Origin: Escherichia coli O127:H6 str. E2348/69
GTDB lineage: Bacteria; Pseudomonadota; Gammaproteobacteria; Enterobacterales; Enterobacteriaceae
Strand: one strand, 5' to 3'
NCBI RefSeq assembly: GCF_000026545.1
Contig: NC_011601.1
Length of the DNA: 64,000 nucleotides
Made by a program: the position numbers and the translations under genes. Below, in pieces: positions 26,881-27,234 of the stretch (position 1 is its first letter; each line of letters begins with the position of its first letter). The notes beneath the pieces are model-generated. The model did no database searches, was not told the DNA's origin, and was given only the letters and a program-made list of their open reading frames with translations.

Positions 26881-27234
26881 ATTGTTCAGTCTCTTATTAT
26901 CTTTATATGCTTGATATACTTAAGGTTGTAATAAGCAAAAGAGGACTGAACTGTAAAATATAGGCGTTATACTTTACAGCAACAGTACGCCGCTAACGCA
27001 ATTGCTACCTCTGGCATAACAAGTATATCGGGTAAGGGTTTCTGTTCCGCACACGCAGGCGCAGAGTATCGTTAAGATGTCCATATTGTTGTTTTAATCC
27101 CGCTAGTGATGCGCTACGGGTATTTAATATTGTTAAACCCTGATAATCGCTCCGGTTATTTCCGGGATAAATGTACTACCGCAGTTACTATCATAGCCCC
27201 GACAATAAAACTTGCCGGGGCTTTTTTGACGCTA

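Follow-up and report, generated by a model that had tools for sequence, protein, structure and literature searches.

The GC-rich stem-loop in the intercistronic spacer between glcB and glcA of Escherichia coli O127:H6 strain E2348/69 is probably a dual-use element, which on the operon-sense strand defines and protects the 3' end of the glcDEFGB mRNA inside the operon, and which on the opposite strand serves as a terminator if the candidate small RNA C0719 is transcribed. The structure is real and terminator-like, its structure is conserved in E. coli lineages and E. albertii, and RNA 3' ends of the minus strand have been mapped directly beside it. It is an ordinary feature that is already largely known, in that public resources already contain the candidate RNA C0719 as well as an RNA end mapped for glcB at this hairpin. 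The window, namely the whole stretch of DNA analysed here, is 64,000 nt long (NC_011601.1), and the positions given below are those of the window unless K-12 coordinates are indicated.

The stem-loop and its two strands

According to the E2348/69 annotation and the list of open reading frames, the genes around the stem-loop all lie on the minus strand. The gene glcB, encoding malate synthase G, occupies positions 27235-29406, with glcG and glcF beyond it; glcA, encoding glycolate permease, occupies 25198-26880; and sslE/yghJ is found at 20138-24730. The gene glcA is the last one of the operon, which is called glcDEFGBA following the usage in PMC10272880, and it lies 354 nt downstream of glcB, the spacer spanning positions 26881-27234. 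On the minus strand glcB is closed by tandem stop codons (UAA UAG), which are located 8 nt upstream of the A-run of the hairpin. The region of 521 nt around the hairpin is 100% identical to E2348/69. Of 5,426 complete genomes of E. coli, about 4,540 carry it once, with an identity of 95-99%.

The stem-loop at 27195-27222 was defined by pairing and folding and is able to form on both strands. Its core is a 7-bp stem, in which AGCCCCG (27195-27201) pairs with CGGGGCT (27216-27222), and on the plus strand it runs into six T residues at 27222-27227. The first T closes the 7-bp stem, which leaves five T past this stem, or six past the 6-bp G/C stem. The initial annotation had described this stem and T-run as antisense to the operon, and both the sequence and the gene annotation bear it out. 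The inner part of the hairpin differs between the strands. On the plus strand an A.C mismatch follows the core, and then CAA (27203-27205) pairs with TTG (27212-27214) around the loop TAAAAC, giving a 7+3 arrangement of six G-C pairs, one A-U pair and three inner pairs with the A.C mismatch between. On the minus strand there are 11 continuous pairs including one G.U, and the T-run becomes an A-run located 5' of the hairpin.

The RNA of the plus strand folds at -15.2 kcal/mol (z = -3.95), and none of 200 shuffled sequences folded equally well, while a value of -21.6 kcal/mol (z = -5.1) is reached by the RNA of the minus strand. The minus-strand fold is the more stable one because the A.C mismatch of the plus strand becomes a G.U pair there and the stem consists of 11 continuous pairs. 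For the dominant allele the values are -20.1 kcal/mol for the sense-strand hairpin versus -14.7 kcal/mol for the antisense one. Over these folds the stem is 5-6 kcal/mol more stable on the sense strand.

The terminator candidates in the window were ranked by our own scan, using a discriminant d of the d'Aubenton-Carafa type. A scan with the loop limited to 3-8 nt passed over this hairpin solely because of the loop limit. On the plus strand the hairpin reaches d = +9.7 with a U-tract tail score of 4.29, and ranks seventh among the 16 positive sites in the window. Judged from its sequence, the plus strand has the predicted anatomy of a canonical intrinsic terminator, with a G/C-rich stem, a short loop, a run of 5-7 U and a positive discriminant, although its stem differs from the usual one by the internal A.C mismatch found in most E. 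coli. Thirty dinucleotide shuffles of the window were used as the baseline, and sites with d at least as high as that of the hairpin occur 7 times against 0.93 times in the shuffles per 128 kb on both strands (about sevenfold). A chance site in this spacer is therefore unlikely; by our own arithmetic, either strand of the 354-nt spacer would carry such a site with a probability of about 0.003.

RNA 3' ends on the operon-sense strand

The chromosome of K-12 is collinear with the window here, and the coordinates can be transferred as K-12 = window + 3094399. In the Term-seq data (Adams et al. 2021, supplementary file 1, sheet LB 2.0), a 3' end is found at 3121590(-), corresponding to window position 27191, at a distance of 4 nt from the stem on its downstream side. 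The table assigns this end to glcB as "primary" and also marks it as antisense to C0719; the printed sequence ends with ...AAAAAAGCCCCGGCAAGTTTTATTGTCGGGGCTATGA, and the end was called only at LB OD600 2.0. Moreover, the TRS re-analysis of RNAtag-seq data (Nat Commun 2023) independently gives a terminus at 3121587-3121594(-) in two data sheets, corresponding to 27188-27195. In relation to glcB this terminus is classed as "alternative primary in TU", and its R values are 0.947 and 1.0. Since R is defined there as L/(L+D), namely 1 minus read-through, the local read-through past the glcB end is at most about 5%. The minus-strand 3' ends lie 4-7 nt beyond the hairpin and 5-8 nt from the last G-C pair.

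A 3' end between glcB and glcA, which the initial annotation had proposed to look for, is therefore present on the minus strand (27191 and 27188-27195), and the spacer is not one in which RNA ends are missing from both strands. On the other hand, the description of the hairpin as being in the wrong orientation is misleading, because the mapped 3' ends are on the operon-sense strand, where the stem is also the more stable. A hairpin whose T-run is on the apparently wrong strand can still be where the sense message in fact ends. Thus the strand of such an element should be assigned from 3'-end maps together with the G.U/A.C asymmetry of the stem, and not from the T-run alone. For the annotation, a correction is suggested, namely that a strong 3' boundary lies inside the glc operon, past glcB.

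The sense strand is not a classical intrinsic terminator, because its tail is UAUGAUAG, with a tail score of 1.6 and d = -19; the sequence UAUGAUAGUAA on the 3' side of the stem is not a U-tract, and the tail has only 4 U in 9 nt. Since the sense strand has no U-tract, the mapped end most likely comes from exonuclease trimming, and we infer processing rather than termination. The proposed course is as follows. In the glcDEFGB(A) mRNA, an 11-bp hairpin of about -20 kcal/mol would form just past the glcB stop codons, and Rho-dependent termination or endonuclease cleavage would occur somewhere in the 354-nt untranslated spacer. The 3'-to-5' exonucleases would then trim the RNA back and stall at the hairpin, so that the glcDEFGB segment would build up and the RNA of the spacer and glcA would not. 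In this way the position at which the glcB message ends would be fixed by the hairpin, which might also uncouple the level of glcA from that of glcB.

Dar and Sorek (2018; PMC6061677) reported that the steady-state ends of Rho-dependent transcripts are stable stem-loops without a U-rich tract, which protect the RNA against PNPase and RNase II. The glcB end resembles these protective stem-loops in lying directly downstream of a stable stem without a U-tract, and in that the hairpin stands just past the stop codon and before a long untranslated stretch. It differs from them in that the hairpin is inside the operon and not at its end, and in that the downstream rut signature is weak (C/G ratio on the sense strand of about 1.0-1.4, with local values of up to 1.75, the sequence being AT-rich). 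The published bicyclomycin data come from LB at OD 0.5, a condition in which no glcB 3' end was called. The gene glcA was reported to respond less than glcD to LldR overexpression (PMC10272880), which is weak evidence compatible with some uncoupling of the two ends of the operon.

Differential expression within operons is set by intercistronic stabiliser hairpins in other cases, for example by the REP sequence between malE and malF. The proposed behaviour of the glcB hairpin is like that of the malE-malF REP, in that a stable stem-loop follows the upstream cistron and the upstream message would accumulate relative to the downstream one, whereas the glcB hairpin is not a REP element.

The plus strand and C0719

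The plus strand carries a match to the candidate sRNA C0719 (Rfam RF00117) at 26959-27180, with 295.8 bits against a gathering score of 50 and covering positions 1-222 of the model. The match is full-length and wholly antisense to the glcB-glcA spacer, and the 3' end defined by the array is located 15 nt before the stem. C0719 is an array-derived candidate sRNA between yghK (glcA) and glcB, which is attributed to Tjaden et al. 2002. Surveys of sRNA evolution reported that it has been lost in some lineages. The family RF00117 was built on near-identical sequences of Escherichia and Shigella, and the score of 295.8 bits therefore reflects sequence identity rather than structural evidence. The T-run is at the same locus and on the same strand as C0719, although the hairpin with its T-run (27195-27227) is outside the 222-nt model. 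The initial annotation had also considered that the hairpin may terminate an antisense transcript that is not annotated; a transcript on the plus strand has indeed been proposed here, but it is not a new one, since it has already been described and named as C0719. If this RNA is made, the hairpin probably terminates it as well, as far as the predicted anatomy of the plus strand goes. The RNA would then end at about 27227 and be about 269 nt long rather than 222 nt, which is about 47 nt past the boundary given by Rfam and the array, and the stop at the hairpin would keep antisense transcription out of glcB.

It has to be considered whether the hairpin exists for the plus strand only, as a Rho-independent terminator of C0719, with the minus-strand end being an incidental stall of exonucleases. 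Any stable hairpin stalls exonucleases, and selection could thus have acted on the plus-strand structure, with the minus-strand end arising only as a side effect. We think this unlikely, although several lines of evidence agree with it. The full anatomy of an intrinsic terminator, with 5-7 U and d = +9.7, is found on the plus strand alone, and the C0719 match ends just upstream of it. Moreover, the T-run is kept at a length of 5-7 in every variant, the E. albertii types having 5 T, K-12 and E2348/69 having 6, and lineages such as O111 and APEC having 7. C0719 was reported to be up-regulated at transition phase in an RNA-seq study, and in a study that used transposon insertions to examine the retrohoming of a group II intron, an insertion at the C0719 locus was a hit with a phenotype. 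However, the glc operon switches on at the transition phase and the text of the RNA-seq paper never mentions the strand, and the signal may therefore reflect sense RNA. In addition, overexpression of C0719 gave no phenotype in a biofilm and motility screen.

The resources searched for the plus-strand RNA itself also tell against this explanation. There is no plus-strand 3' end at K-12 31216xx in the tables of Adams et al. 2021 or of TRS 2023, both of which are curated lists covering few conditions. No transcription start site near the 5' end of C0719 was found at the expected coordinates in the supplements of SMRT-Cappable-seq and Cappable-seq, and the scan of the window found no consensus promoter for a plus-strand transcript. 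The current RefSeq records of K-12 (NC_000913.3) and E2348/69 have no entry for C0719, whereas further sRNAs, CyaR among them, are listed in the K-12 record.

The SEnd-seq work of Ju et al. (2019) reportedly described bidirectional terminators at places where transcription units converge. The glcB hairpin is like a bidirectional terminator in that one hairpin would be common to glcB and the proposed convergent C0719, with an A-run on one side. It is unlike typical ones, which combine an A-tract with a U-tract symmetrically and thereby have a U-run on both strands, since here the U-run is found only on the plus strand. Furthermore, the convergent partner here is a candidate sRNA, the downstream gene glcA is co-directional with glcB, and the Term-seq and TRS tables list only a minus-strand end.

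The variation of the stem within Escherichia also bears on the strand that is used. In the dominant allele the plus strand has the A.C mismatch where the sense strand has the G.U pair, which does not favour a role on the plus strand only. The stem position that is G.U on the sense strand and A.C on the plus strand differs between E. coli and E. albertii. The hairpin of E. albertii has three substitutions and one A/T fewer in the run. On its sense strand a C-G pair is changed to U.G and the G.U pair to G-C, and the pair that closes the loop no longer forms, the fold staying at -18 to -20 kcal/mol; on its plus strand a C.A mismatch is gained and the fold is at -15 kcal/mol. In a set of 49 sequences taken from Escherichia genomes and from metagenomes, the sense stem is at -18 to -21 kcal/mol in all variants except for one contig of about 2x coverage, and the plus-strand stem ranges from -13 to -21.6 kcal/mol. 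The plus strand is favoured by the loop-closing pair of the albertii type and by one low-coverage variant. Taken over this small sample, with few substitutions and a mixed asymmetry, the stem variation suggests a leaning towards selection on the sense-strand RNA.

Among the matches listed, of which 80 loci were kept, there is no GlcB relative from other Enterobacteriaceae beyond that of E. albertii (96%), and the next relatives are from Pseudomonas, Stutzerimonas and Burkholderiales with 61-67% identity. In strain PEC408, an insertion/deletion of the IS5 family replaces everything to the left of about 27188, and the hairpin stays attached to glcB. The ISKpn26-like element of the IS5 family abuts the hairpin there (L003, about 3850-4050), and the glcA/sslE side is replaced by the IS together with type II Zorya defence genes.

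Possible attenuation within the operon and the conserved spacer

Instead of the protection from trimming that we prefer for the sense strand, the hairpin might work there as a partial attenuator, in which RNA polymerase is released over the A/U-rich hybrid of UAUGAUAG and which thereby sets the ratio of glcB to glcA transcription, possibly with the help of NusA/NusG, or when it collides head-on with a polymerase that is transcribing C0719. The positions of the ends, 5-8 nt from the last G-C pair, are at the normal release distance, and a weak termination that depends on the hairpin and on an A/U-rich hybrid would also account for them. The stability of the hairpin is high, its sense tail is A/U at 6 of 8 positions in E. 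coli and at 7 of 8 in E. albertii, and the low local read-through and the smaller response of glcA to LldR overexpression would fit as well. Bidirectional termination driven by collision is a mechanism described in bioRxiv 10.1101/2022.10.23.513370, a follow-up of the SEnd-seq work. However, the classical discriminant is clearly negative on this strand, and the literature places glcA in glcDEFGBA under the glcD promoter, an arrangement that depends on a good deal of read-through. Termination and trimming cannot be told apart by 3' ends mapped at steady state. Altogether we regard attenuation by release of the polymerase as quite unlikely.

The spacer in which the stem-loop lies is itself conserved. 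Between the window (26881-27234) and E. albertii (L004, 5173-5525), the identity is 96.3%, with 13 substitutions and one indel, while the silent-site baseline is 74% at the four-fold sites of glcB and 67% at those of glcA, and 83% at the adjacent third codon positions (Fisher p = 1e-8). A comparison of 8 sequences shows no variation in the 105 nt upstream of glcA (26881-26985). The raised silent-site identity reaches about 400 nt further, within the 3' part of glcB, and a local recombination tract may therefore account for the conservation as well as selection may, the two not being separated by these comparisons. Something in the spacer appears to be constrained, such as a leader or promoter of glcA, or a pair of sense and antisense RNAs. 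It is thus conceivable that the hairpin ends a larger module consisting of the conserved intercistronic leader and C0719 as an RNA pair, in which the shared stem would be a collision point or bidirectional stop, and in which antisense pairing or a leader structure would gate glcA independently of glcB; we consider this very doubtful. The conserved spacer upstream of glcA is nevertheless the more interesting lead on a separate expression of the permease and the enzymes.

Other elements of the spacer were considered at the same time. The fold of the whole spacer has z = -3.45 on the sense strand and -1.8 on the antisense strand, and with the hairpin removed the values are -1.6 and -1.0, both non-significant; thus a structured RNA leader across the spacer is not claimed. 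A sense ORF of 36 codons is located between glcB and glcA at 26974-27084 on the minus strand (MDILTILCACVCGTETLTRYTCYARGSNCVSGVLLL), and both of its substitutions in E. albertii are at third codon positions. It was rejected as the cause of the conservation, as it has no Shine-Dalgarno sequence, no match in NCBIfam, and three non-synonymous changes among E. coli strains. A further hairpin of 31 nt is present at 26950-26980 in the invariant leader of glcA, with 13 continuous pairs (two of them G.U) on the operon-sense strand; on the plus strand it is interrupted, with 7+4 pairs and A.C mismatches, and it overlaps the 5' end of C0719 (26959).

It is hardly credible that the glcB hairpin arose as a palindrome by chance or belongs to a REP/BIME-like repeat family, with no specific role, because, although short GC palindromes are common in the intergenic DNA of E. 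coli and 3 of the 13 substitutions in the spacer fall inside the hairpin, those substitutions keep the sense-strand pairing, the score is rare in shuffled sequence, the mapped RNA ends abut the hairpin, and the element is single-copy (one copy in the window with 3 mismatches allowed, by which a REP/BIME or another dispersed palindromic repeat was rejected, and a median of one place per genome in complete E. coli genomes). Another hairpin is found just past the glcA stop codon (25160-25190), where the operon ends. It scores as terminator-like on both strands, with d = +3.9 on the plus strand, and the operon end thus also carries a predicted stem-loop with two faces.
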